64,000 nucleotides of DNA, from assembly GCA_038144855.1 (NCBI GenBank), contig JAYQOO010000005.1, forward strand, positions 9,248 to 73,247. The letters run 5' to 3'. Position 1 is the first letter of the stretch. The number at the start of each line of letters is the position of its first letter. The translations under genes and the position numbers were made by a program. The notes under the pieces were generated by a model, which was not told where the DNA came from, searched no databases, and was given only the letters and a program-made list of their open reading frames with translations. This stretch comes from Acidimicrobiia bacterium. GTDB taxonomy: Bacteria > Acidobacteriota > Vicinamibacteria > Vicinamibacterales > UBA2999. This document shows positions 1 through 63,444 of this stretch, piece by piece.

Positions 1-329
1 GTGCCGCTCCGGGCGATCACGCGCTCGATGAACGGTGGTCCGAGCGGAATCGCCTCGCGGTACAGCAAGACGAGGTCGTAGTGGTTGAGCTCCTGGAGCT
101 CCAGCAGCCGCCGGAAGGCCAGCGGCAGGAAGGCCAGGGCCTTGCGCAAGTAGTTCCGCGGCTTGTAGACAATGCGGAAGTACTCGGGCGTGTAGAACGA
201 ACTGATGGTGACGTCGATACCGGCCTCTCGCAGGTACGGAATGTACTGCGCGACACGGAAGCGACAACCCGCACCCTCTTCCGGGAAGGGTGAGAGCGCC
301 AGGACTCTGAGACGGGATGAACCGATCAT
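1..329 (-). CDS. glycosyltransferase (GT4/GT-B type), N-terminal part; CDS runs off the left edge
   Basis: Own reverse-strand translation from ATG at 329-327: MIGSSRLRVLALSPFPEEGAGCRFRVAQYIPYLREAGIDVTISSFYTPEYF... Absent from the ORF track because it is open-ended. ATGA overlap with the stop of the upstream ORF (326-329). Confidence 0.7.
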   Translation of the reverse strand, partial: MIGSSRLRVLALSPFPEEGAGCRFRVAQYIPYLREAGIDVTISSFYTPEYFRIVYKPRNYLRKALAFLPLAFRRLLELQELNHYDLVLLYREAIPLGPPFIERVIARSG

Positions 330-655
330 TTCAGGGACCGAATGAACAACAACAGCCCGACGGACGCGGCCGCCGCTTGCGGCAGCAGCCACATCCAGCC
401 AGCGGGCGACTGGTAGAACATGGTCAGCGCGGTGGCCGTAGTGGCAGACGACCACAACAACAGCGCGACATTCTTGCGCCGATCGCTTTCAGACAACTCG
501 CGCCACTGCGCCAGCCATTCGCCGACGGACGACACCGAGCGTGCCTGTGTGCCCGCCCGCCACAGCGTCTCGACCGCGCGATCGGCAGGGCCCAGCAGCG
601 CGCTCGATCGGAGCGCCTGCGCGACTCGCGCGTCGTCTTTTGCCGTTTCTGTCAT
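326..655 (-). CDS. hypothetical small membrane protein
   Basis: 109-aa ORF with two C-terminal hydrophobic segments (ALLLWSSATTATALTMFY, WMWLLPQAAAASVGLLLFI). 4-nt overlaps with both neighbours. Confidence 0.5.
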   Translation of the reverse strand: MTETAKDDARVAQALRSSALLGPADRAVETLWRAGTQARSVSSVGEWLAQWRELSESDRRKNVALLLWSSATTATALTMFYQSPAGWMWLLPQAAAASVGLLLFIRSLK

Positions 656-1701
656 TTGGATGGCGCCGAGGCGTCCAGGGCCACGACCGTGCCCTGCAGT
701 TCATACGCCGCATTCCGCCACGAGAACGTGCCCCCCGGCCGCAGTGGCGTGTTGGCGTGCAGCCAGCCGTTCGCGCCGCTCTGGGCCTGCACGGTCAGTC
801 GCGCCTCACGGGTCGCGCCACCAGCAGGACCAACACTGTCGACGACCGCTGAAGCCGACAGTTCGTTGCGCACATCTCCATAGCTCGAATCGCCAGGTTT
901 CATCAGCGCCAGCACGCGCGGGTCACCGCCAAACCGCACGGTCACGCGAACCGGCTGCAATGGCGCCACGCTGCGCACTTCATCGATCTGGAACGCGGCT
1001 TTTCCGAAGGGCAGTTCGAAGAACAACAGGCTCGCGGGCTGCAGCGACACCTCACCGCCCACGCATTCGGGCTGTCCCTGGTTCGACCGCACGTAGCAGG
1101 ACAGTCGAAGCACAGCCGGCACCATTCGGGCCTCGGCTTCCGGGATCTCGACCATGTTCGGACGAACGAAGACCCGCTGGCGTTGCGCGACCGCTTCGCC
1201 TGCACGCTCGATCACGCCCAGGTCTTTGATGACCAGGCCGGCCTTGATCTCCGCCGCCTGCGCGGCCGTGAGGTTGCCGAAGGTTCCGACCACGATCAGC
1301 TTGGCATCCGGCAGGGCGGACGGCGCAATGGTGAGTCCGCGCGGAATGCGAAACCGCTCCTGTGCGTTGTCATAGAGCACGACGTCGTACACGCCCGGCG
1401 GCGTGTCGAACAGATCGACCTCGGCTTCCGTCGTGTCCGTAAACTTGAACGTGCGCCCCTGGTTCGGTCCGATCGACACGCGCAGGTATGGCAGCAGGTT
1501 CGTCCCGCGAACCTTGAACTTCATGTCGCTGCCATACACGATCGTCGACGGCTCGACGGACGTCAGCGTCGGACGCGGCGTCCGGAGCAGCAGGTAGCCG
1601 CCGTAGGCCAGTGGAATCATCCACAGCACCAGCACCAGCACGATGGCATCGAACAGGTTCAGGCGGCCGAACAGCCGGCCGCGCTCGTCAACTATGGGCA
1701 T
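652..1701 (-). CDS. DUF4330-like membrane-anchored protein (family name from memory)
   Basis: N-terminus MPIVDERGRLFGRLNLFDAIVLVLVLWMIPLAYGG resembles the DUF4330 signature as I recall it. It is followed by a beta-rich extracytoplasmic region. Confidence 0.55.
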   Translation of the reverse strand: MPIVDERGRLFGRLNLFDAIVLVLVLWMIPLAYGGYLLLRTPRPTLTSVEPSTIVYGSDMKFKVRGTNLLPYLRVSIGPNQGRTFKFTDTTEAEVDLFDTPPGVYDVVLYDNAQERFRIPRGLTIAPSALPDAKLIVVGTFGNLTAAQAAEIKAGLVIKDLGVIERAGEAVAQRQRVFVRPNMVEIPEAEARMVPAVLRLSCYVRSNQGQPECVGGEVSLQPASLLFFELPFGKAAFQIDEVRSVAPLQPVRVTVRFGGDPRVLALMKPGDSSYGDVRNELSASAVVDSVGPAGGATREARLTVQAQSGANGWLHANTPLRPGGTFSWRNAAYELQGTVVALDASAPSK

Positions 1702-3049
1702 CTGCGTACGCCTTCCTTGGTACCCGAATTGGCGACGAATGGAGCGCGGCCCTGGCCACCTCGTACAACCCGAGGCCGGCGAGCCACACCAGATACGGCA
1801 TCACTAGGCCGCGGTGCCGGATCAACGTGCCGATGTTGCCGCTGGTCATCGCCACCACCGTGATCGCGCCCATGGCGTGCGCGGACAGCAGCATGGTGAA
1901 CATCACGTCGCGGCGGACGCCAGCCACCAGGCCGAACGGCGCCAGCGCCAGCAGCACGTACCAGAACATCTGTTCCGGTAAATACGCGAGCAGCGCGCGT
2001 GACTCGATGCGCCACGGCACCGGCTCGGTTACATACGCCACGTAGGAATCCACGACGTAGCGGATCGCGTGAGGAGCCGGCATGGTGTACAGGCGAAGTC
2101 CGTCGACGTAGTACAGGTCGTCGAGGATGTGGTACGAGTAACCGTTCGAGCCCACGTGGCCGGAGTGATAGATCGCCCAGCTCCGTGCGGCGTTCAGCGC
2201 GCGCTCCTGAACCGGCGGCAGCATCATGGCGCCCGCGATCGCGATTGGGAGCAGCACCGCGGTGGCCAGCGTCGCTTTCGGCCGGGCCAGCACGTATCCA
2301 AAGAACAGGCCGCCGACCACTCCGGTGAGCGCCACCATGCTCCCGCCGCGGCGCAGGCTTTCCAGCGCCACCGCGCCGGCTATCACGCCGAGCAGCCACA
2401 GGATCCGGGTTCGCCAGCTGCCGGCCCGTGCCACGCCAACCGCGCACAGCAACTCCAGGGCCGCGGCCAGCGTGTACGACGGCTCTTTGAGCGCCGAAAT
2501 GGACCACATGAAGAGACTGGGCGTGAACAGCAGCACGATCAAACCGGAGAGCGCCGCAATCCCTCCGAATACCGGACGCACCAGCCTGAACAACAACAGA
2601 ACCGCCGCCAGGTAACAGGTGCTGTTGACGACGTGTACGCCGTACGGCGCGTTGCCGAAGATCGCCTGGAGCACCGCCAGCGCATACAAGTAGCTCGAGA
2701 TGCCCACGTCCTCGAACGCATAGATCACGTCAGCCGGTGACATCGCCACGCCGAGGCCGTAGTTCCGGATCCACAGCGAACGATTCTTGAAGAACAGCTC
2801 GTCACCGAAAAAGGTCTCGAATGGCGCGGTGCCGTCCGCCGACAGGAACAATCCACCGATCAACAGCAGACGTCCAACGACCGCCAACGCCACGATCGTG
2901 AAGAACCACTGACGCTCTCGGCCGGTGAGGCCCGCGCCGGCCCAGCGCGCCAGCACGATGAGCAGCGGCACGCAGATCGCGGTCAGCGGCGATACGGCGT
3001 AGGCGGCACCCACTGCGACTCCCGCCGCCACCATCTTCCAGGTCGTCAC
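1688..3049 (-). CDS. polytopic membrane protein (polymerase / GT-C-like candidate)
   Basis: 453-aa ORF that is hydrophobic throughout (more than 10 predicted helices by eye) and sits in a glycan locus. The exact family was not recognised. Confidence 0.6.
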   Translation of the reverse strand: MTTWKMVAAGVAVGAAYAVSPLTAICVPLLIVLARWAGAGLTGRERQWFFTIVALAVVGRLLLIGGLFLSADGTAPFETFFGDELFFKNRSLWIRNYGLGVAMSPADVIYAFEDVGISSYLYALAVLQAIFGNAPYGVHVVNSTCYLAAVLLLFRLVRPVFGGIAALSGLIVLLFTPSLFMWSISALKEPSYTLAAALELLCAVGVARAGSWRTRILWLLGVIAGAVALESLRRGGSMVALTGVVGGLFFGYVLARPKATLATAVLLPIAIAGAMMLPPVQERALNAARSWAIYHSGHVGSNGYSYHILDDLYYVDGLRLYTMPAPHAIRYVVDSYVAYVTEPVPWRIESRALLAYLPEQMFWYVLLALAPFGLVAGVRRDVMFTMLLSAHAMGAITVVAMTSGNIGTLIRHRGLVMPYLVWLAGLGLYEVARAALHSSPIRVPRKAYADAHS

Positions 3050-4155
3050 GCCGTCAACTCCTGGAACAAGCGGTCGTAGCGCGCGGCCACCGCCGGCAGC
3101 GCGTAGTGCGCCACGCTGTCTGTCGCGTGCGCGACCAGGCGCTCGCGGCCTGGGCGGTCAGACACGAGCCTGGCCAGCGCCTGCGCAATTGCACGCGGCT
3201 CATGCTCCACCAACACGCCGTTGCGCTCGCTCTCAACAATCTCCACGGTGCCTGGCGAGGCGGTCGCGACGACCGGCGTGCCGCAAGCCATGGCCTCAAT
3301 CAGCACGTTGCCGAACCCTTCGTACGCCGAGGTCAACGCGAACACGTCGGCCTTCGCGATGAATCGCCACGGGTTCGACTGAAAGCCCAGGAAGCGCACG
3401 CGCGAGGCAACGCCGCGTTGGTCGGCGAGCGCGGCCAGCCGATCGAGCTCGGGACCTTCACCGAGAATCCACAGATACATCGGCGTCGTTGGCACCAGCT
3501 CCACGAGGGCGGCAATCAACAGCGGGTAGTTCTTGACGTTGGCCAGCCGGCCGGCGGCGGCAACGACCGGGCGATCGCCGCTCAGTTCGGACGGAATCGG
3601 CTCCGCGGACTGCCTGGCAATGGCATCCAGGTCGACGGGGTTGTGCAGCACGCGAATCTTGTCGCGCGGTACGCCGTAGTTGATGGTGAGATCGTCGGCG
3701 ACGCCCTGCGACGTCGCGACGACCGCATCCGCGCGGCGGTAGAAGAAGCGTGTCAGCGCCGCGAACGCCCGGCGGCGCAGCGGCTGGCGCCATGAAAAAT
3801 CGGGATCCTCCAGGAACCCTGTCGTGGGTGTGCCCTGGTTGAACACCACCTGCGCGCGGATACCCGCCGCCTTCACCGCGATGGCCGTGATGAAGTAGCT
3901 GAGAAACGGCATCACGATGTCGGGGTTGAAGTCACGGAGAAATGCCGCCAGTTCGCGCATGCGGCCCAGCCACGAGGTTTGCTGCGCCACGACCACGCGC
4001 ACACCGTCCGCAACGCGATCACGATAGACGGCATTCTCGAGACTGAAGACGTAGAGCACGCGCTCGTGAGAGTCGCTCAGCGCGCTCAGCACCGTGACCG
4101 CCACGCGTTCGGCGCCACCGCTCGTCAACGTCGGGATCACGAAGCACACCTTCAC
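3046..4155 (-). CDS. glycosyltransferase family 4
   Basis: C-terminal GT-B motif SAYEGFGNVLIEAMACGTPVVAT. N-terminus MKVCFVIPTLTSGGAERV. Confidence 0.85.
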   Translation of the reverse strand: MKVCFVIPTLTSGGAERVAVTVLSALSDSHERVLYVFSLENAVYRDRVADGVRVVVAQQTSWLGRMRELAAFLRDFNPDIVMPFLSYFITAIAVKAAGIRAQVVFNQGTPTTGFLEDPDFSWRQPLRRRAFAALTRFFYRRADAVVATSQGVADDLTINYGVPRDKIRVLHNPVDLDAIARQSAEPIPSELSGDRPVVAAAGRLANVKNYPLLIAALVELVPTTPMYLWILGEGPELDRLAALADQRGVASRVRFLGFQSNPWRFIAKADVFALTSAYEGFGNVLIEAMACGTPVVATASPGTVEIVESERNGVLVEHEPRAIAQALARLVSDRPGRERLVAHATDSVAHYALPAVAARYDRLFQELTA

Positions 4156-5351
4156 GCTGACACCGGAATTGGTAACTGCAGTTCCTTGCCGGCCATCAAC
4201 ATCATGTCCGCGGCTTGGCGCTCGAGCGTGAACGTCCTGGCGGTCGCGTACCCGCCTTGAATCAGCCGGCGGCGTAGTTCAGCGTCTCTGACGACGCGCT
4301 TCACCGCGCGCGCTACTGAGTCTGCCGACGCATCGGGCATCAATAGCCCATTCGTCTCATGCGTGATCAGGCTCGTGATCCCGGACACGTCGGTCGTGAC
4401 GATCGGGAGCCCATTGGCCATTGCCTCGAGCAACACGCGCGGAATGCCCTCACCCGGCTGAGTCGGGAGCACGAACACATCGTAGTCGCGGTACTGCGCC
4501 ATCAACTGGTCGAGGGGCACGGCGCCGCGCAACCGCACGCGATCGCCAACACCCAGCGTCGCCGCCTCCGCTGCAATCGCATCACGCTCATCGTCTCCAA
4601 TCAGCCCGATGGTGGGGCCGACCACGTCGAGCGTGATATCGATGCCGTCGCCGGACAGCTGCGCAACCGCGGCCGGCAGCGACCGCAGTCCCTTGCGGGG
4701 ATCGATGCGGCTGACTGTCAGCGCGCGCCATGCGCCGGACTGACCGACATCGGTGCGGGTGCCAATATCTTCCTGGCTCAGCGTCGTGGTCTTGGTCTCG
4801 ATCACGCGGCCGCCGTCGCGCTCGTGCTTGATCCGCAGGGCGGCGCCGTTGGCAAACGTCAACGACTGCGAGGTCATGTGTCGCAGCGCCCATTCTTCGA
4901 ATGCGACGTAGGCGCCGAATAAGCCCTTCTTGAGGCCGCGATACGGCAGGTGCGGCAGCAGCGCTTCGTAGTCGCCCACCACCAGCAGGAACACCGGCTT
5001 GCCCGCCGCCTGCGCGGCGCGAAACGCGAAGATGCCCGCGGGGGTGGGGACACGCAGGTGGATCAGGTCGCACTGCGCGACCCAGTCCTTCAGGCGCCCA
5101 TAGATCGTCGGCAACTTCGGATAGAACTGCCGCGGGCCTGGGAAGTACGGCAGCGGCGCCAACCGCACGTTGGTAGCGCGTACGCGCGAGCCGGACGCCT
5201 GAGGCCGGTCGAACACCGGCACCGACAGCACGATCTCGTCGAAGTGCGGCGCCAGCGAATCCACGTAGCGGGCAAACGACCCTTCGGACTCCCACAGAGT
5301 CCCGTCAGCCGCCTGCCAGAACGGCATGTGATACAGGATGCCGAGCGTCAC
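4152..5351 (-). CDS. glycosyltransferase family 4 (start revised)
   Basis: Motif PTQPGEGIPRVLLEAMANGLPIVTTDVSG. The ORF-track start at 5648 adds an Arg/Ala-rich extension that overlaps the upstream gene. GTG at 5351-5349 forms a GTGA overlap with the upstream stop (5348-5350). ATG at 5327 is an alternative. Confidence 0.75.
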   Translation of the reverse strand: MTLGILYHMPFWQAADGTLWESEGSFARYVDSLAPHFDEIVLSVPVFDRPQASGSRVRATNVRLAPLPYFPGPRQFYPKLPTIYGRLKDWVAQCDLIHLRVPTPAGIFAFRAAQAAGKPVFLLVVGDYEALLPHLPYRGLKKGLFGAYVAFEEWALRHMTSQSLTFANGAALRIKHERDGGRVIETKTTTLSQEDIGTRTDVGQSGAWRALTVSRIDPRKGLRSLPAAVAQLSGDGIDITLDVVGPTIGLIGDDERDAIAAEAATLGVGDRVRLRGAVPLDQLMAQYRDYDVFVLPTQPGEGIPRVLLEAMANGLPIVTTDVSGITSLITHETNGLLMPDASADSVARAVKRVVRDAELRRRLIQGGYATARTFTLERQAADMMLMAGKELQLPIPVSA

Positions 5352-6475
5352 GAGATCTGTTTGGCGGTCAGCAAGCGATCGTAAAGCGAGGTCACCGACG
5401 CGATGTAGCCGTCGACGCCGAAGCGCGGCCGCACGAACGCCCGCGCCTCCTGCGACAGCAGCACGCGAAGCGTGTCGTCCTGCAGCACACGGGTCATGGC
5501 CGTGGCCAGTTGCGGCACGTCGCCAGGCTCGACCAGCAGGCCGCTGACGTTGTCGTGCACGACCTCTGGAATGCCAGCCACCTTCGAGGCAATGACCGGC
5601 AAGCCAGCGCCCATGGCCAGCACCAGCGACAGCGGCAGGCCCTCCCACAGCGACGGCATCACGAACATGTCGATCGCGCCGAGGATGTTGCCAAGGTCGC
5701 GCCGTGCGCCGGCGAAATGCACGCGGCCCGATAGCCCCAATTGCTCGACGCGTGACTGCAATTCGCGACGCAACTCGCCGTCACCAACGGCGAGCAAATG
5801 GAGGTTCGCCAGTTCCGGGCGCGACACCATGGCGTCAAACAGCACGCGATGGGCCTTCTGCTCGGTCAACCGGGCAATGATGCCCGCCAGCGGCACATCC
5901 AACGGCACACCGAGCTCGGCGCGCATCTCGTCGCGGCTCATGGTGGTCTGCAACTGCGACCAGTCCACGGCGTTATAGATCACCACTACCTTGTCGGGAT
6001 CGGCGCCGATCTGGTCGACGTAGAAATCGCGCACGGACTCGGCCGAGGCCACCACCGCGTCGGTGCGCTGCATCAGCCAACGCTCCGCCATGCGGTGCAG
6101 CGGCCGCTTGCGCTCGTAAATATTCACTTCTGTCCCGACCACGATCGGCACGCGCGCCAGCATTGACGCGAAGCGCCCGTAGAGGCTCGCCGTGAGCAGG
6201 AACGTGTGGACGATGGTCGGTTCGCAGTCGTGCAGGAACTGCTGCAGCCGCATCAGGTCGAATGGGCGCAAGAGCCCGGGCTGCAGGCCGAGCGAGCGGA
6301 ACGGATATCCGGTCTTCTCCACCTCGTCGCCGATCGGCCCCGGCGTGCCGATGCATACGACGGCGCGCTCGTACTCCGCCGGGAGGTAGCGAATCAGGTT
6401 GAGGATCATTTCCTCGGCCCCACCAACGGCAAGAGTGTGGGCGAGATACACAACGCGTGCGCGAGTCTGGCTCAT
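5348..6475 (-). CDS. glycosyltransferase family 4
   Basis: N-terminus VVYLAHTLAVGGAEEMILNL. Motif PSLWEGLPLSLVLAMGAGLPVIASKVAGIPEVV. Confidence 0.85.
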   Translation of the reverse strand: MSQTRARVVYLAHTLAVGGAEEMILNLIRYLPAEYERAVVCIGTPGPIGDEVEKTGYPFRSLGLQPGLLRPFDLMRLQQFLHDCEPTIVHTFLLTASLYGRFASMLARVPIVVGTEVNIYERKRPLHRMAERWLMQRTDAVVASAESVRDFYVDQIGADPDKVVVIYNAVDWSQLQTTMSRDEMRAELGVPLDVPLAGIIARLTEQKAHRVLFDAMVSRPELANLHLLAVGDGELRRELQSRVEQLGLSGRVHFAGARRDLGNILGAIDMFVMPSLWEGLPLSLVLAMGAGLPVIASKVAGIPEVVHDNVSGLLVEPGDVPQLATAMTRVLQDDTLRVLLSQEARAFVRPRFGVDGYIASVTSLYDRLLTAKQIS

Positions 6476-6483
6476 GAAACGGT

Positions 6484-7452
6484 CTACGCCGGTGCGGTCC
6501 GGTAGTGGGCAATCGTGTCTTCAAGGCCGGCGCCGAGCGTCCACTTCGGCGTCCAGCCCAGTTCTTGTGCCGCGCGGCCAACGTCGGCCACGAAGTCACC
6601 GGTCTCGATCTGCTTGGCCAGCGCCGGCCACTCGACGTGCTGGATGTGGCCGCGGCCGGCGATCCGGATGATGTCATTGGCGACGTCGATCATGCGCGCG
6701 CCGGTGCCACTGGCCACGTTGTAGGCGCGCCCGTCGGCCTGGTCGGCCAGGCCAATCACGATCAAGGCCTCAGCCACGTCGGAGACGTGCACGTAGTCGC
6801 GCAGTTGGGTGCCGTCGCCATAGATCGACATGGCCTGGTCCGACAACGCGAGGTGGATCAAGCGATTGATCACGCCGTAGGCGGTCCGGCCGGCCGGCTG
6901 CCCAACACCGTACGGATTGGTGATCCGCGCCACCGCGTAGCGCACACCGAACAGGTGGGCGTAGAGCTTCAGGTAGTCTTCGACCGTCCGCTTGTGGATT
7001 GCGTGAATGCACAGCGGATCGCCGAGTTGGTCTTCGCGAACCGGGATAGCGTTTGGTTTGCCGTACTGCAGTCGCGACCCGGCAAAGATCACCTTCGGCC
7101 TCGACGTGGCCGCGCGCACCGCCTCGAGCAGTACCAGGTTACCGCGCAGGTTCAGATCCAGGTCGGACCAGGGATCTTCCATGCTGCGAACAGCACCCGA
7201 TTGGCCCGAGAGGTTGAACACGAGGTCTTGACCGTCGACCAGCGTGCGCATCATCTCGAGATCGCGGATGTCGCCCTCGACAATCTTTGCGCCACGACGC
7301 TCGACGTCCGCCGCGGTGGCGGCATGGCGAGCGCGGGACGGCGTCAGGATTGTCACCGCCGCCCCATCTCGAAGCAGGCGGTCGACCAGGTTGATGCCGA
7401 TAAAGCCAAGGCCCCCGGCCACGCACACCTTCATGTTGGCCAGGCCGCTCAT
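6484..7452 (-). CDS. NAD-dependent epimerase/dehydratase (SDR)
   Basis: Rossmann motif KVCVAGGLGFIGINLVDRLL. The start is set at the ATG that gives an ATGA overlap with the upstream stop (7449-7452). Confidence 0.85.
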   Translation of the reverse strand: MSGLANMKVCVAGGLGFIGINLVDRLLRDGAAVTILTPSRARHAATAADVERRGAKIVEGDIRDLEMMRTLVDGQDLVFNLSGQSGAVRSMEDPWSDLDLNLRGNLVLLEAVRAATSRPKVIFAGSRLQYGKPNAIPVREDQLGDPLCIHAIHKRTVEDYLKLYAHLFGVRYAVARITNPYGVGQPAGRTAYGVINRLIHLALSDQAMSIYGDGTQLRDYVHVSDVAEALIVIGLADQADGRAYNVASGTGARMIDVANDIIRIAGRGHIQHVEWPALAKQIETGDFVADVGRAAQELGWTPKWTLGAGLEDTIAHYRTAPA

Positions 7453-57679: not shown

Positions 57680-57749
57680 TGACTGACGACCGAACTGCAG
57701 ACTGTTGATCGCACACTCTTAACTGCCGACTGTCGACTGCAGACTGATG
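57675..57749. repeat. eight ACTGNNG heptamers in three blocks spanning the pgk-tpiA spacer
   Basis: ACTGATG ACTGACG (57675-57688), ACTGCAG ACTGTTG (57694-57707), ACTGCCG ACTGTCG ACTGCAG ACTGATG (57722-57749). The first unit holds the pgk TGA and the last holds the tpiA ATG. Confidence 0.85.
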
Positions 57750-58523
57750 CGCACACCTCTCATCGCCGGCAACTTCAAGATGTTCAAGACGGTCGCCGAG
57801 ACCGCTTCGTACGTCACCGACCTGCGCGCGCTGATCCACACCGCCCATGGCGTGGTCGGCGTTGATGTCGTCATCGCGCCGCCCTTCACGTCACTCTCTG
57901 CGGCGGTTGAAGCGGCACGCGGCAGCGTGGTCGGCATTGCCGCGCAGAACATGCACTGGGAACGCGAAGGGGCGTTCACGGGCGAGACCAGCGGCGGCAT
58001 GATCCACGGCACCGGCGCGCGGCTGGTGATCATCGGGCACTCCGAGCGACGCACGCTGTTTGGTGAGACCAACGAGACCGTCAACAAGAAGACGCACTCG
58101 GCAATTGCCGCCGGCCTCGTGCCGATCGTCTGCATCGGCGAGACGCTCGCCCAGCGCGATGCCAATGAGACGATCGCGGTGCTCGATCGCCAGATCGAAC
58201 AAGGCCTCGATCGCGTAACGGGCGAGCAGTTATCCCGGATGGTGCTTGCCTATGAGCCGGTGTGGGCAATTGGCACCGGGCGCAATGCCACGCCGGCTCA
58301 GGCGGGTGAAGCGCACTTTCACATTCGCCAGCGGCTCAAGCAGTGGTTCGGGCTCGACGCCTCAGCGCGCTGCCGCGTGCTCTATGGTGGCAGCGTCAAG
58401 CCCGACAACATCGCGACGCTTATTGCCGAGCCGGATGTCGACGGCGCGCTCGTCGGGGGCGCCAGCCTCGATCCGAAGTCCTTCTTCGCCATCATCCAGG
58501 GCGCCCGCTCCACGAAGTCCTAA
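57747..58523 (+). CDS. tpiA: triosephosphate isomerase
   Basis: MRTPLIAGNFKMFKT...VIIGHSERR...LAYEPVWAIGTG...YGGSVKPDN. Confidence 0.95.
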   Translation: MRTPLIAGNFKMFKTVAETASYVTDLRALIHTAHGVVGVDVVIAPPFTSLSAAVEAARGSVVGIAAQNMHWEREGAFTGETSGGMIHGTGARLVIIGHSERRTLFGETNETVNKKTHSAIAAGLVPIVCIGETLAQRDANETIAVLDRQIEQGLDRVTGEQLSRMVLAYEPVWAIGTGRNATPAQAGEAHFHIRQRLKQWFGLDASARCRVLYGGSVKPDNIATLIAEPDVDGALVGGASLDPKSFFAIIQGARSTKS

Positions 58524-58615
58524 GTTCGACGGTTCCCTGCGCCGTGTCTGGGATTCAACTCCCGGACGTGGCACAGCTTGGCCCGAATTCTGCAGTGTCG
58601 ACTGCAGGAGGGATC

Positions 58616-58819
58616 ATGAAGATCGTTGGAATCCTACTCGTGGTACTTGGCGTGCTGGGTTTGGCAGCTGGTGGGCTCTCGTGGACCCGAACCAAGACCG
58701 TGATCGACGCGGGGCCGATCGAATTGAAAGCCACGGAGCGCGAAAGCCTGCCCATTCCCCCGATTGCGGGAGGCCTGTTGCTGGTGGCCGGCGTGGTCGT
58801 GTTGATGAAGGGTAAGTGA
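58616..58819 (+). CDS. small two-TM membrane protein (not SecG-like)
   Basis: MKIVGILLVVLGVLGLAAGGLSW...IAGGLLLVAGVVVLMKGK (67 aa). AGGAGGG lies 5 nt upstream of the ATG. The ORF-track version starts 273 nt too early, inside tpiA. Confidence 0.6.
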   Translation: MKIVGILLVVLGVLGLAAGGLSWTRTKTVIDAGPIELKATERESLPIPPIAGGLLLVAGVVVLMKGK

Positions 58820-58859
58820 TCCACTCAAGCTCCACCGGGTTCGGCCGATTCAAGTGGCA

Positions 58860-59560
58860 ATGGCCACTCCACGCGCGTCCCGCCTTGTTCCCGTTCTCGT
58901 TGTCTGCCTCGTGGCGGTCGGCTGGGCCACGCCGCCTACGTCCACCTCAGCAGCGCCATCGAGAAGCTGAGATCCGGCAACGAAGCGTTTGTCGCCGATC
59001 CGGCGGGCGCGATGCCGATTACCGTCAACGGCCGTCGCGCGCTCGCGAAGGGACAGACGCCGTTTGCCTCCGTGCTGTCGTGCGCCGACTCGCGGGTGCC
59101 GCCCGAGGTGGTCTTCCACACCGGACTCGGCGAATTGTTCGTGGTGCGCGCCGCGGGCCATGTCAACGACAGCTCCGTGCTCGCCTCGCTCGAGTACGGC
59201 GCCGAGCACCTGCACATTCCACTCATCGTCGTCATGGGACACGAATCGTGCGGTGCGGTGGCGGCAACGATCGGGACACCGCCGGGCAAGTCGCTCGGCA
59301 AGAACCTAGACTACCTGATCAAGTCCATTCGGCCGGCAGTGCCGTCGGAGAAAACGTCCGACGACGCGGCGTATCTCCGAGCGGCGATCCTCAAGAACGT
59401 CGAGGAGCAGATCAATCACCTGATCGAGGACAGCGACGTCCTCCGCCACATGTTCGAGAGCGGCACGGTTGGATTCGTGGGCGCGTATTACGAACTTTCT
59501 TCCGGCCGCGTGACCTTCTCTGAACCGATCTCGCGCTCGACACAGACGACGCACCAATGA
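58860..59560 (+). pseudogene. beta-class carbonic anhydrase, apparently split by a frameshift between signal peptide and catalytic domain
   Basis: Frame A (58860-58970): MATPRASRLVPVLVVCLVAVGWATPP... then stop. Frame B is open from 58820, but its first canonical start is the ATG at 59012. It encodes ...HLSSAIEKLRSGNEAFVADPAGAMPIT...SCADSRVPPE...VMGHESCGAV. The conserved N-terminal helix lies upstream of the only ATG. Confidence 0.5.
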
Positions 59561-60150: not shown

Positions 60151-60177
60151 AGCACGTAGCCGTCGGCCTTCAAACTT

Positions 60178-60202
60178 TGGTGCGGAAGAAAGAACTCGAC
60201 CC
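60178..60202 (-). repeat. degenerate second copy of the tRNA-Leu-like 3' end (old att remnant?)
   Basis: TGGTGCGGAAGAAAGAACTCGACCC here versus TGGTGCGGAAGAAAGGACTCGAACC at 60294-60318. The surrounding 60178-60257 forms a long imperfect hairpin (GGTGCG...CGCACC) but not a cloverleaf. Confidence 0.45.
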
Positions 60203-60288: not shown

Positions 60289-60293
60289 GGCAT

Positions 60294-60351
60294 TGGTGCG
60301 GAAGAAAGGACTCGAACCTTCACGCCCTTGTGTGCGCCAGCCCCTCAAGCT
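60294..60351 (-). other. 3' portion (about 58 nt) of a tRNA-Leu(GAG)-like gene; putative att site of the adjacent element
   Basis: Minus strand reads AGCTTGAGGGGCTGG...GAAGGTTCGAGTCCTTTCTTCCGCACCA. This covers half an anticodon stem, the loop TTGAGGG, a long variable arm, the T arm, acceptor 3' strand, A73 and CCA. No matching 5' half follows; upstream is AT-rich non-tRNA sequence. Confidence 0.6.
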
Positions 60352-60466: not shown

Positions 60467-61708
60467 ATGACGCTCCGCAAACCCCTCACCTCCACGCTCA
60501 CCTCCAACCGCACCCTGGCATCCATCTGCGACGGTCGGGGGCGTCTGGAACGACTCCCCACCAGCGGCATCATCTCCGCTCGGGCGTGGATACAGGGGAA
60601 GGACATTCGCAAGAGCACGGGAGAACGGACGCTGACCGCAGCAAAGCGGGTGGCGACCGAGTGGTGGCACGACCTGTCCGTCCGTGTGCGACGCGGGGAA
60701 CAGGTGCATTCCCCGACCTTCGCGGACTGTGCGACCAAGTTCCTGGCGAAGCGGGAGCGGGATGCGGAGGCAGGGCTCATCAGTGCGGGGCAATACCGCA
60801 ACCTGCGACAGAAAGCGGCGTTGCTGGCACCCCTGCTCGGTAGCGTGAAGGTCGCAGACATCACCGCAGACACCTTGGAGCGACTGCGTTCAACACGTGA
60901 ACGCGTCAAGAACAAGCGTGGGCAACTCCTCACGAACGAGACGCTGAAGAAGGACTTCGTCTTCATCCATTCCGTGCTGACCTTCGCACGAGACACCCTG
61001 AAGGTGCTCCCGTTTGTCCCCAAGACCCCGTCCTTCACGGGGACGAAAGCACTCGTCCGTCGCGGTCGTCCCTTTTTAACCGAAGCGGAATACAAGACCC
61101 TCCACCAGCTGGCGAAGTCGCAAGCGGAAGAACCCGACCTAAATCCCCGCGTCCGTCGGCAGCGACAGGAACTCTACTGGTTCATTCTCATTTGCGTCGG
61201 CGGGGCACTACGGGTCGGGGAAGCGGAAAGCGTGCGGTGGTGCGACTGCGAACAGGTCACCCTCAAGAACGGGACGGACAAGGGCGAACCTGCGGTGCGA
61301 ATGCTCGTGCTGGGGAAGCACTCGACAGGGGGCAGGCGTGAGGATGCGTATGTGCTGTTCGGGGGCGTCTATGCGTATCGGGAGATGCTGGCAGCGCGAC
61401 CCGAGACCGCGACGGAGACCGACCTGCTCTTCACCGAAAGTTATCGGGAAGGGATGAAGCGGTTGCTCAAGGACGCAGGGCTCTACGAATACCGCGACCC
61501 GAAGACGGGCAAGATGCTGACGCGAGACCGAAAGTCGCTCCGACCGACGGGCATCACGCTCCGCTTGGACAAGGGCGACAACCTGTCCCACCGCGATGTG
61601 GCGAAATGGGCGCGCACCAGCGTCCAAATGGTGGCAGACTTCTACGACCAAGCGCACCCTGAGCAGGTCGCGGAGCGGGTGGCGGGGTTTCGGAACGCAA
61701 AGAACTAG
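60467..61708 (+). CDS. tyrosine-type site-specific recombinase/integrase
   Basis: 413 aa. N-terminal SAM-like/core-binding region. C-terminal ALRVGEAESVRW (Arg), KSLRPTGITLRL (xxR), VAKWARTSVQMVADFYDQ (W...Y nucleophile region). Confidence 0.8.
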   Translation: MTLRKPLTSTLTSNRTLASICDGRGRLERLPTSGIISARAWIQGKDIRKSTGERTLTAAKRVATEWWHDLSVRVRRGEQVHSPTFADCATKFLAKRERDAEAGLISAGQYRNLRQKAALLAPLLGSVKVADITADTLERLRSTRERVKNKRGQLLTNETLKKDFVFIHSVLTFARDTLKVLPFVPKTPSFTGTKALVRRGRPFLTEAEYKTLHQLAKSQAEEPDLNPRVRRQRQELYWFILICVGGALRVGEAESVRWCDCEQVTLKNGTDKGEPAVRMLVLGKHSTGGRREDAYVLFGGVYAYREMLAARPETATETDLLFTESYREGMKRLLKDAGLYEYRDPKTGKMLTRDRKSLRPTGITLRLDKGDNLSHRDVAKWARTSVQMVADFYDQAHPEQVAERVAGFRNAKN

Positions 61709-61715
61709 GCGCTGG

Positions 61716-62036
61716 ATGTCGACAACAGAACTGCGGCTGATGCTGGCGGACGTGGCGACCCTCTCACCTGAGCAGATGAGCGCACGTCGCAAGTCGCTGC
61801 AATTGACGGAGACCGATGTGGCAGACCTGCTCTTACTCTCCGTGGCGCAGGTGCGTGGCATCGAGCGTGGCGTGATACAGCCGTTCTACAACGAGGGGTT
61901 TTATCTCCGCGCCAGAGCCAAATACATCACGTTGCTGACGACGTATCCCACGCCCGCGAGACCGCCAGCATTGGCACCAATGCCAGACGGTGCCGAAGCA
62001 CCGCGACTCACGTTCGGCGATGAACACCACGAATGA
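61716..62036 (+). CDS. XRE/Cro-like helix-turn-helix protein (start revised)
   Basis: MSTTELRLMLADVATLSPEQMSARRKSLQLTETDVADLLLLSVAQVRGIERG. It starts 7 nt after the integrase stop. The ORF-track start at 61596 lies inside the integrase. Confidence 0.6.
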   Translation: MSTTELRLMLADVATLSPEQMSARRKSLQLTETDVADLLLLSVAQVRGIERGVIQPFYNEGFYLRARAKYITLLTTYPTPARPPALAPMPDGAEAPRLTFGDEHHE

Positions 62037-62290
62037 CGACCCAATGCCGCTACTGTCGCTCCGCGTCCTACGGACGTGGGTGCTCCTACTCCCCGCACAA
62101 AGCCCACGAACACGCGGGCACCGCTGACCGCTGCGAGTTCTGCGGGTCCACGTCCTATGGGCGGGGCTGTTCCTATTCCCCGACGAAAGCGCATCGGCAC
62201 GGGCAGGATGGGCGGAAGTGTCGCTGGTGCGGGAGTAGCTCGGTGGGGCGGGGGTGTTCGTATGCTCCGACAGGGACGCACGAACGCTGA
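62033..62290 (+). CDS. Cys/His-rich triple-repeat mini-protein (unrecognised family)
   Basis: Three copies of C-x2-C-x8-C-x7-H-x-H: [46 protein letters not shown] and [27 protein letters not shown] overlap with the HTH gene. Confidence 0.6.
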
Positions 62291-62451
62291 TGGCGCATCG
62301 TGACAACCGTCCAATGAAGGTCTGTGTGGTCTGTGGGCGTCCGTTCCAGTGGCGGAAGAAGTGGAAGACGGTCTGGGCTGAGGTCAAATACTGCTCCGAG
62401 CGGTGTCGGGGGCAACGGAACCGAGCGACTCCGACTACCGAGAAGCGGTAG
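62290..62451 (+). CDS. DUF2256-like zinc-ribbon protein (start revised)
   Basis: [49 protein letters not shown] overlap with the preceding gene. Confidence 0.65.
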
Positions 62452-62471: not shown

Positions 62472-62588
62472 CTACTTGGGCACCACCACACACACCGCAA
62501 ACGGTCTCACCGTGGACTGGAGCACCCGCAGCAGGGTGTTCCAGTCCGCGCTCTCTCCAATACAACGTAGAACCGACCCCACCCCCAA
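62472..62588 (-). CDS. possible small ORF carrying the shared C-terminal module (TTG or GTG start)
   Basis: Own translation: (M)GVGSVLRCIGESADWNTLLRVLQSTVRPFAVCVVVPK, then TAG. Same frame as, and uninterrupted from, the TAG stop of 62679-63143. Below the ORF-track size limit. Confidence 0.3.
   Translation of the reverse strand: MGVGSVLRCIGESADWNTLLRVLQSTVRPFAVCVVVPK
62484..62549. repeat. 66-bp perfect direct repeat, copy 1
   Basis: CACCACACACACCGCAAACGGTCTCACCGTGGACTGGAGCACCCGCAGCAGGGTGTTCCAGTCCGC is identical to 63259-63324. It contains a 14-bp hairpin GGACTGGAGCACCC-GCAGCA-GGGTGTTCCAGTCC. Confidence 0.9.
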
Positions 62589-62678: not shown

Positions 62679-63143
62679 CTATCGCGCAATCTGACAGCCA
62701 CTGAAATCGACAATCCGTGCGTACTGCGTCGGTGGCACGCCTTGGCTACACCCGCTCGTCGTAACGGTCTTGCGCGTGCCTGCGGGTACTTGTCCACCGC
62801 TACACGTCAGCGTCGTCCATTGGGTGTAGCTGAAACTCTCCTGACCGCACTCAAACCGACTAGCGGAGTTCTCGCCGCTCCGTCCTGCCCACACGAAGCA
62901 CATTCCATCACCGTAATCGACGGGAAACCTACTGGTATTGCCAGGTTCACCTGCGCACGCCGAGTCTTGCCAGAAGCCCACCGTGACGTAGCGCGTGGAG
63001 ACGACGGGATTATTCGGAATAGACGCAGTGTTTGTGACGCTCGGCGCGCTTGGCGTCTGACTCTGCCCGCCACACGCTATGCTGCCCAGCGCGACCGCGA
63101 CTCCTACGCACCAGCGACCCTTCTGCCAAAGACGCAAACTCAT
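62679..63143 (-). CDS. secreted Cys-rich protein, possible lipoprotein (hypothetical)
   Basis: MSLRLWQKGRWCVGVAVALGSIACGGQSQ signal, then seven Cys in total. Flanked by the two 66-bp repeat copies. Confidence 0.6.
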   Translation of the reverse strand: MSLRLWQKGRWCVGVAVALGSIACGGQSQTPSAPSVTNTASIPNNPVVSTRYVTVGFWQDSACAGEPGNTSRFPVDYGDGMCFVWAGRSGENSASRFECGQESFSYTQWTTLTCSGGQVPAGTRKTVTTSGCSQGVPPTQYARIVDFSGCQIAR

Positions 63144-63246: not shown

Positions 63247-63444
63247 CTATCGCGGGATCACCACACACACCGCAAACGGTCTCACCGTGGACTGGAGCAC
63301 CCGCAGCAGGGTGTTCCAGTCCGCACTACTCTCCACGGCATAGATCGTTCCCTCCGCGAACAACGGGTTCTTCGTCGCAGCGATGAAGTCGGCTTCGGTC
63401 GTCATCGGCACATTCACCACGCTGTTCCCCTTCGGCACTTTCAT
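63247..63444 (-). CDS. small hypothetical protein ending in the shared C-terminal module
   Basis: MKVPKGNSVVNVPMTTEADFIAATKNPLFAEGTIYAVESSADWNTLLRVLQSTVRPFAVCVVIPR. The ATG overlaps (ATGA) the stop of an upstream open frame. Confidence 0.5.
   Translation of the reverse strand: MKVPKGNSVVNVPMTTEADFIAATKNPLFAEGTIYAVESSADWNTLLRVLQSTVRPFAVCVVIPR
63259..63324. repeat. 66-bp perfect direct repeat, copy 2
   Basis: Identical to 62484-62549 (66/66 by eye). Confidence 0.9.

Follow-up and report, generated by a model that had tools for sequence, protein, structure and literature searches.

The subject of this study is a small open reading frame (ORF), here called CysHis, at 62033..62290 on the plus strand of a 64,000-nucleotide (nt) stretch of DNA. 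The whole stretch is referred to below as the window and corresponds to positions 9248-73247 of contig C5 in a 4.25-Mb assembly, for which the closest relative is labelled as a Vicinamibacterales metagenome-assembled genome (MAG). CysHis encodes an 85-amino-acid (aa) protein with three Cys-Cys-Cys-His (CCCH) units and no signal peptide, and it lies in a tight string of genes behind an integrase-like gene, between a probable helix-turn-helix (HTH) gene and a DUF2256 gene. We regard it as firm that CysHis belongs to an uncatalogued family of proteins with three such units and that it is carried here as cargo of a mobile island.

The protein holds nine cysteines (C5, C8, C17, C34, C37, C46, C63, C66, and C75) and six histidines (H22, H25, H27, H54, H56, and H83), arranged as three units of C-x2-C-x8-C-x7-H that follow each other with a 29-residue period and share the core S-(Y/V)-G-R-G-C-S-Y-(S/A)-P. 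The raw sequence bears out the first-pass annotation of this DNA, made from the letters alone, with respect to the 85-aa length, the numbers of Cys and His, and the three repeat units. The unit had there been written as C-x2-C-x8-C-x7-H-x-H, and the H-x-H end is found only in units 1 and 2, while unit 3 ends in H-E-R-stop. The start codon at 62033 overlaps the stop codon of the upstream gene (ATGA, 62033-62036) and the TGA at 62288-62290 overlaps the ATG of the next ORF at 62290 (TGATG), exactly the overlap coupling that the same annotation had described on both sides. Since a stop codon is located just 3 codons upstream from the start of the window copy, there is no room for a signal peptide. 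The net charge is +8, compared with a family median of +4.

Tandem Repeats Finder (TRF) detected no repeat at the DNA level within the gene, from which we conclude that the triplication is old and has been kept at the protein level. When the window copy was compared with its closest relatives, the ratio of nonsynonymous to synonymous substitution rates (dN/dS) was 0.04-0.15 at synonymous rates (dS) up to 0.76, and the minus-strand ORFs overlapping CysHis showed no comparable support from selection or from a family. It is clear that CysHis is a real, selected gene, and the invariance of its Cys/His pattern in 67 relatives together with the low dN/dS values places this pattern far beyond chance. 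The probability that the ORF is spurious is negligible.

A family of proteins with three CCCH units

Relatives were collected by a word-indexed search followed by a profile search, in which a profile built from eight members was run against 1.84 billion cluster representatives. The first search returned 12 homologues with 47-88% identity, and the second returned 387 representatives at E<=1e-3, with 255 at E<=1e-10 and 22 at E<=1e-30. Judged from these sequences, CysHis represents an uncatalogued family of hundreds of 50%-identity clusters, spread over more than ten phyla as well as phages.

In an alignment of 67 sequences the columns C5, C8, G14, C17, H25, C34, C37, G43, C46, H54, C63, C66, C75, and H83 are invariant. 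These 14 columns are all Cys, His, or Gly, that is the CCCH ligands and a few glycines, and the window protein has every one of them. Exactly three units are present in 119 of the 159 family members that were fetched, with the consensus C-x2-C-x7-9-C-x5-13-H and a period of 28-29 residues. The modal spacings among the 119 are x8 (86-91 members) and x7 (83-109 members); the window protein shows both modes and a period of 29. The domain nearly always stops two residues past the last His, as H-E-R/K/H, and the window protein ends in H83-E-R85, so with respect to units, spacing, period, and C-terminal end its sequence fits the definition of the family. The three-repeat layout is ancient. An aromatic residue is conserved at each CxxC, and in units 1 and 2 the ligand His is followed by a further conserved His (97 and 114 of the 119 members, respectively). 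In most members the domain makes up the whole of a cytoplasmic protein of about 82-85 aa.

The window protein has no family match in Pfam (scanned to E<=1), NCBIfam, or PHROGs. When the 67 members were scanned against Pfam and NCBIfam at E<=0.1, only sub-threshold matches to generic zinc modules were obtained; in Pfam, 37 families were matched, and among the 25 that were listed are zf-CHCC in 9 members (best E 2e-5) and PyrI_C in 17, along with DZR and RanBP. The fusions found in long family members contained no informative Pfam domain, and a literature search (DUF2256; CCCH bacterial small protein; GmrSD with zinc-binding small protein) revealed no description of the family. The first-pass annotation had likewise failed to recognize a family here, in keeping with the lack of a Pfam, NCBIfam, or PHROG model; the ORF proved to be conserved in related elements, and no described zinc-knuckle family was matched. 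The loose flavour of the DUF3761 'GTCSxHGG' motif that had been noted did not stand up, as DUF3761 gave no match to the window protein at E<=1 and does not figure among the 25 families that were listed when the 67 members were scanned at E<=0.1.

Predicted structure and probable metal binding

AlphaFold2 modeling of CysHis on the 67-sequence alignment gave a mean predicted local distance difference test score (pLDDT) of 91.5 and a predicted template modeling score (pTM) of 0.76. The model contains only short beta bridges, which recur with the repeat period, and no helix is predicted; it looks typical of metal-stapled knuckles packed as one small domain. A Foldseek search with the model returned no PDB chain at E<=10 and no meaningful match to the viral models of BFVD, and a sequence search of the PDB with the family profile yielded non-significant matches only, to tandem C2H2 fingers (E 0.14-0.9).

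That CysHis binds metal, as proposed in the first reading, is strongly suggested by the three invariant sets of CCCH ligands and by the confident, compact model, so the protein may be described as a putative metal-binding protein. Support for a metal site also comes from the weak library matches, all of which are to zinc-binding modules (zf-CHCC, PyrI_C, DZR, and RanBP). In addition, one family member carries a twin-arginine signal (RRDFLK), and since the twin-arginine translocation (Tat) pathway exports folded proteins, often loaded with cofactor, we count this member as an argument for a metal site. From the conservation pattern, one structural Zn(II) per unit is most likely, which would make CysHis a Zn3 mini-domain. 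Each zinc site may be formed within one unit (C, C, C, H), or it may bridge two units, with the C...H of unit n and the CxxC of unit n+1 as ligands. The bridging register would be that of zf-CHCC, and with it the two chain ends may close a ring.

Family forms and cellular location

In about 64 of 78 genome loci the first Cys comes immediately after a start of the type M-x-(x)-K and the protein lacks a hydrophobic segment; this form, which includes the window copy, is predicted to be a stand-alone cytoplasmic protein. Sec signals are found in about seven genome members and in many metagenome proteins, and one member has the Tat signal mentioned above. Some longer members consist of a signal peptide, an outer domain, one membrane helix, and a basic stretch followed by the CysHis domain, while others have the CysHis domain at the N-terminus ahead of several membrane helices. 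According to the positive-inside rule the domain would be cytoplasmic in these membrane-anchored members.

A two-unit form dominates among viral contigs. IMG/VR contributed 64 loci (L103-L166), nearly all of which have two CCCH units fused to a helical domain of 120-140 aa that corresponds to phrog_2086 (function unknown). This phage subfamily occurs with conserved synteny on low-GC phage contigs of up to 284 kb, where the neighbors, named by eye from motifs, include a CCA-adding/poly(A)-polymerase-like gene and small nuclease-like genes. Two-unit proteins are also seen in a Campylobacter sp. locus (L003:5801-6168), which has two tandem overlapping paralogues of 66 and 55 aa located 1.2 kb upstream of a GmrSD_N gene.

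The repeated Cys-rich core and the leader-like N-termini of some members could be taken to indicate a ribosomally made, modified peptide (RiPP) precursor, or a secreted Cys-rich peptide with repeated cores, and one locus (L006) does have a weak SPASM-domain protein two genes downstream. This was rejected for CysHis, since no maturase recurs beside the gene in the 78 genome loci and a leader is missing from the window copy. Moreover, the model makes the entire chain one folded domain, and where members are extended at the N-terminus the extension is a normal Sec or Tat signal, which makes such a precursor extremely improbable.

An islet at tRNA-Leu(GAG)

The gene string that contains CysHis is part of an islet whose left border is an att copy at 60293..60351 (minus strand), a 59-nt 3' segment of tRNA-Leu(GAG) that spans the sequence between the anticodon loop and CCA, both included; ARAGORN found no intact tRNA at this position. 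The right-border copy lies just past the end of the window, at window-equivalent 64704-64761. In contig coordinates there are three att copies, at 69540, 73951, and 76195 of C5, which are 97-100% identical, and the last of them runs on into the tRNA body and is cut by the contig end. Since the three copies bracket two integrase-bearing elements, two islets are integrated in tandem at tRNA-Leu(GAG). Besides the integrase, HTH, CysHis, and DUF2256 genes, the first islet, which is 4.4 kb in size (window 60293 to about 64761), contains two genes for small lipoproteins and one for a 65-aa protein. The second islet (C5:73951-76271, window-equivalent 64704-67024) is 2.2 kb long and has an 84%-identical integrase and no CysHis gene. 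CysHis is accordingly an accessory gene carried by the first of the two islets at tRNA-Leu(GAG).

The first gene of the string (60467..61708, plus strand) encodes a 413-aa divergent tyrosine-integrase-like protein that matched PHROG 1 'integrase' (E 5e-17) and showed no sequence match in Pfam (PF00589 included, E<=1), NCBIfam, or the PDB. Besides the 84%-identical copy after the next att site, a copy with 72% nucleotide identity is present on contig C69 of the same genome. It is on the PHROG match and the att architecture at a tRNA gene that we assign this ORF as a probable integrase, and the placement of the cassette directly behind an integrase, as claimed in the first-pass annotation, is upheld in the sense that it follows this integrase-like gene in an element with att repeats.

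The next gene (61716..62036, plus strand) starts 8 nt past the integrase stop and encodes a 106-aa helical protein, probably with an XRE/RodZ-type HTH. The support from profiles is sub-threshold: in Pfam HTH_3 (PF01381) scored 18.5 bits against a cut-off of 23 (E 0.0022) and HTH_25 gave E 0.02, while several XRE-type NCBIfam models matched at E 0.005-0.2 and the Xer activation factor family at E 0.011. No PDB sequence was matched, and an AlphaFold2 model on a three-sequence alignment was helical and poor (pLDDT 63), with meaningless Foldseek matches. The ORF is conserved with the same start in the loci L016 and L017 described below. The XRE-like HTH protein that had been named upstream of CysHis is a weak assignment, all of its matches being sub-threshold.

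Downstream of CysHis, and overlapping its stop codon, a gene on the plus strand (62290..62451) encodes a 53-aa zinc-ribbon protein with the pattern C-x2-C-x17-C-x3-C. The proposed DUF2256 identity was confirmed by a full-length match to PF10013 (70.8 bits against a cut-off of 25, E 1.1e-19, model positions 2-39 of 40). Sub-threshold or partial likenesses to YacG (E 0.004) and to the zinc fingers of HNH endonucleases (phrog_1271, E 1.5e-5) were also observed. No promoter-like site was found between the integrase, HTH, CysHis, and DUF2256 genes. The tight spacing, with an 8-nt gap followed by two overlaps, suggests that CysHis is co-transcribed with the integrase gene and that HTH, CysHis, and DUF2256 are translationally coupled in that order.

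The remainder of the islet within the window contains a predicted lipoprotein gene (62679..63143, minus strand; 154 aa, ...LGSIACGG...), which has no Pfam, NCBIfam, or PHROG family match and a homologue in L016 on the other side of the HTH gene. It is bracketed by a 74-nt direct repeat, D1, with 96% identity between its arms. One arm, at 62479..62552, is an orphan copy of the 3' end of the conserved 65-aa gene of the islet, and the other (63254-63327) lies within that gene itself (63247..63444, minus strand), homologues of which occur in the C69 island and in locus L102. Outside the left border an old att scar is found at 60177..60202 (minus strand; repeat D2), a degenerate copy of the tRNA-Leu 3' end that agrees with the att copy at 96% identity over 23 nt; its minus-strand reading ends ..TTCCGCACCA. 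In the left chromosomal flank (57747-59560), the translations, read by eye, look like those of a triosephosphate isomerase (57747-58523), a small membrane protein, and, at 59012-59560, a protein similar to beta-carbonic anhydrases.

A second island and the mobility of the gene

Contig C69 of the same genome carries a related 8.8-kb island at tRNA-Leu(CAG), in which the integrase gene is 72% identical to that of the window at the nucleotide level and the DUF2256 is 86% identical. The C69 island also encodes a GmrSD_C-type nuclease, an Mrr_cat restriction enzyme (E 1.2e-25), a truncated HsdM, an HNH protein, and a resolvase. Its CysHis copy is 98% identical to that of the window, with the similarity stopping exactly at the ORF borders, and it follows a 176-aa gene (p176) with abutting stop and start codons, downstream of the Mrr gene. 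Directly before the C69 DUF2256 gene a relic of a CysHis 3' end is present (6660-6842, minus strand; ...APTGAHER-stop), with the intact CysHis gene 2 kb away, and we therefore take the CysHis-DUF2256 junction to be ancestral and the islands to have been reshuffled at gene borders.

The family was found in 5 of 201 genomes of the order, in none of the three genomes of the same genus, and in none of the 17 of the same family. Within the order DUF2256 is rare (4 of 81 genomes), while the genome studied here has three copies of it; the third copy (contig C104:7799-7966, minus strand) is 55 aa long and has ankyrin-repeat-like and transposase-like proteins nearby, as judged by eye. A search of GTDB species gave 120 confirmed CysHis loci, and the groups represented are Acidobacteriota, Planctomycetota, Chlorobi, Kiritimatiellia/Verrucomicrobiota, Spirochaetota, Proteobacteria, Bacteroidota, Firmicutes, and Nitrospira, with Dyella monticola, Limnohabitans, and Brucepastera among the cultured carriers. 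Collectively, these data show CysHis to be patchily distributed and mobile.

Gene neighborhood across the family

Neighbors were compared over the 78 genome loci by all-against-all clustering, and Pfam and PADLOC tallies were made for the 141 immediate-neighbor proteins. The comparison is a rough one, with crude gene calls and the top 25 families listed.

The HTH and DUF2256 neighbors are common only to the window and two other loci, L016 (genome G040) and L017 (genome G146), all from the same order. Neither L016 nor L017 has an intact integrase beside the trio, although a 50-nt relic of an integrase 3' end is located near that of L016. In L017 (positions 1-760) a decaying tandem is seen, comprising CysHis, a truncated DUF2256 gene, the HTH gene, and a degenerate relic of a second CysHis. 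The first reading had proposed a survey for the integrase-HTH-CysHis-DUF2256 cassette in other integrative elements, and as a general unit this cassette is not supported, since the trio is confined to three genomes of one order, lacks an integrase outside the window, and the C69 copy of CysHis follows a different gene.

These results bear directly on the possibility that CysHis, HTH, and DUF2256 serve the island itself, either by controlling integration and excision as a recombination directionality factor or by repressing island genes. In the window CysHis is only 8 nt and two overlaps away from the integrase in a string devoid of promoter-like sites, and the HTH protein weakly resembles XRE repressors and the Xer activation factor family, all of which would suit such a function. 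Elsewhere the association breaks down: the trio in L016 has its integrase relic only, CysHis in the sister island sits behind p176 and 3 kb from its integrase, and the second tandem islet manages with an integrase and no CysHis. Family-wide, integrases make up 2 of the 141 immediate neighbors. An island-serving function is very unlikely in our estimate, and a recombination directionality factor, which had been suggested as a candidate role, is rejected as the general role of the family because there is no consistent co-occurrence with integrases, most family loci having none among the flanking genes.

Other associations involve proteins that target DNA, the genes for which recur right beside cytoplasmic members of the family. 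A GmrSD_N gene is located 42-64 nt downstream of CysHis in three loci (L062, L074, and L091), and the GmrSD proteins of this two-gene cassette are 94-98% identical at the aa level across MAGs of Flavobacteriales and spirochaetes. Going by these sequences, the CysHis-GmrSD pair travels across phyla as a two-gene cassette. SNF2-type helicase ORFs flank CysHis in L036 (gaps of 21 and -3 nt), and one lies downstream of it in L096. The L036 locus (82-5368) is from a Kiritimatiellae MAG, where CysHis is wedged between the two helicase ORFs and may split one helicase system. The order Mrr-p176-CysHis, with abutting stop and start codons, is found in the C69 island and twice in G089, a genome of the same order (L100 on contig C67 and L102 on contig C55).

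Among the 141 immediate neighbors the Pfam tally was 3 GmrSD_N, 3 ResIII, 2 SNF2, 2 HNH, 2 AbiEii, and 2 integrase, and the PADLOC models HEC-05, ZorD, DrmD, DpdE, and AbiEii were matched. As a control, 97 genes located three positions away in the same loci were tallied, and none of the Pfam families just named was among the 25 families listed for them.

A small gene that abuts nuclease genes stop-to-start has a layout typical of toxin-antitoxin pairs, and CysHis could accordingly act as an antagonist that inhibits or gates the adjacent nuclease or helicase, in the manner of an antitoxin or immunity protein or, on mobile elements and phages, as an anti-restriction protein. Its presence on islands and in the 64 viral contigs would agree with this, as would the comparison of L062 with L091, in which CysHis (73% aa identity) is more diverged than its GmrSD partner (94%), and the broken CysHis copies in G089, where the Mrr-p176 pair remains. 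The order of the genes is inconsistent, with CysHis upstream of GmrSD but downstream of Mrr-p176, many loci including the window have no nuclease, and the exported forms do not fit, so that we consider antagonism distinctly unlikely.

A proposed zinc-stapled binding module

The reading that we prefer is that the CysHis domain, a compact unit of about 80 residues built from three ancient Cys3-His units, would have no enzymatic activity and would act as a zinc-stapled binding module, either as a nucleic-acid clamp or as a protein adaptor. It would work with DNA-targeting proteins of mobile and defence islands. In the window islet it would be partnered by the HTH protein and the DUF2256 zinc ribbon, on the C69 sister island by the Mrr-type nuclease and the 176-aa protein, and elsewhere by GmrSD or SNF2 helicases. 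We put forward this role, a non-enzymatic module working with DNA-targeting proteins, tentatively and with somewhat less than even confidence.

Binding was favored over metal storage because of the rigid geometry, the membrane-tethered and phage-fusion forms, the positive charge, the aromatic residue at each CxxC, and the coupling to nucleases and helicases. The membrane-tethered forms are counted on the side of a binding module because they would put the CysHis domain on the cytoplasmic side. As a metallothionein-like store or a metallochaperone, CysHis would buffer or deliver metal (Zn, Cu, Ni, or Cd) in the cytoplasm and periplasm and maybe feed neighboring metal-dependent nucleases. With 9 Cys and 3-6 His in about 80 residues its composition does resemble that of SmtA-type proteins, units 1 and 2 have the extra conserved His, both cytoplasmic and exported (Sec, Tat) forms occur, and in two related Treponema loci a ZnuB-like ABC-3 permease is encoded three genes away. 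The 141 immediate neighbors include no linked metal-homeostasis genes, the rigid, confidently predicted fold and the fixed ligand spacing look structural and not like a flexible cluster, no metallothionein family is among the weak library matches listed for the 67 members, and the tethered and phage-fused forms are hard to explain. We rate a storage or delivery role as improbable.

Several observations weigh against the binding module that we prefer. Across the 78 loci no partner gene is conserved beyond local synteny, and many members, for example in Treponema, are found among housekeeping genes. The link to defence is seen in a minority of the loci, roughly 10-15%, and partly reflects one horizontally spread cassette, CysHis-GmrSD, while the operon in the window itself contains no nuclease. 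In both G089 copies the third CCCH unit is broken by a frameshift or stop, and the gene is therefore dispensable there. About 9% of the genome members, and more among the metagenome proteins, are exported via Sec or Tat and therefore cannot act on cytoplasmic DNA. Finally, tblastn searches of PLSDB plasmids and GenBank phages gave no CysHis match. Taking all of this together, our overall explanation, which combines a real family gene, a Zn3 mini-domain, islet cargo, and a binding-module role, stands in our judgment at an even chance of being right as a whole.

A bolder version would be that CysHis has a zinc-finger fold of a new kind, with three lobes in a closed Zn3 domain, and has been repeatedly recruited as the sensing or targeting subunit of modification-dependent restriction enzymes (GmrSD, Mrr, and McrBC-like) and of SNF2-helicase defence modules, with the two-unit phage fusions to a helical effector as a counter-measure and the window trio as a minimal nuclease-free derivative. 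Ring closure, in which the N-terminal CxxC half and the C-terminal C...H half of a site meet, would explain the strict count of three units and the lack of tails. We regard this version as unlikely. If the functional link to GmrSD, Mrr, and SNF2 proteins were true, type IV restriction and the defence systems related to it would gain in CysHis an accessory subunit that has so far gone unrecognized and that has a counterpart encoded by phages. The annotation of small zinc-binding proteins in bacteria is poor, and a definition of the CysHis family would improve it for many genes now called 'hypothetical'. Being small and apparently soluble, CysHis should be a straightforward subject for metal analysis and structure determination.

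Comparison with known zinc proteins

The bacterial metallothioneins SmtA and BmtA are small proteins with a Cys/His count similar to that of CysHis. They show no sequence match to it, and the fixed repeat geometry of CysHis argues for separate structural sites and not for one Zn4 cluster. Metallothionein was rejected as the identity of CysHis because of this geometry and because no metallothionein match was listed.

Tandem C2H2 fingers, such as those of Gfi-1 and CTCF, resemble CysHis in the 28-30-residue period, the CxxC at the start of the unit, and the His at its end. CysHis differs from them in having no predicted helix, a third Cys ligand, and no TGEKP-type linker.

The CCHC zinc knuckle (PF00098), known from retroviral-type nucleocapsid proteins and CNBP, is similarly a tiny CxxC unit with one His and one more Cys. 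It is likewise basic and used in tandem with an aromatic residue inside the knuckle, and CCHC knuckles bind nucleic acids. The order and spacing of the ligands are different, C-x2-C-x4-H-x4-C over 14 residues in the knuckle against C-x2-C-x8-C-x7-H over 21 in CysHis, and the three CysHis units are seemingly packed as one domain (pTM 0.76), unlike the beads on a string formed by CCHC knuckles. Given the different spacing and order, and with no PF00098 match in the 67 members at E<=0.1, CysHis was not assigned to this family.

The best weak library match of the CysHis relatives is zf-CHCC (PF10276; NDUFS6-type), a likeness that falls short of establishing homology. They have in common the pattern C...H...C-x-(Y/F)-C-G, which would be equivalent to a site that bridges two consecutive CysHis repeats. 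The window protein itself has no match to zf-CHCC, a domain that belongs to a subunit of mitochondrial complex I and has one site and no triplication.

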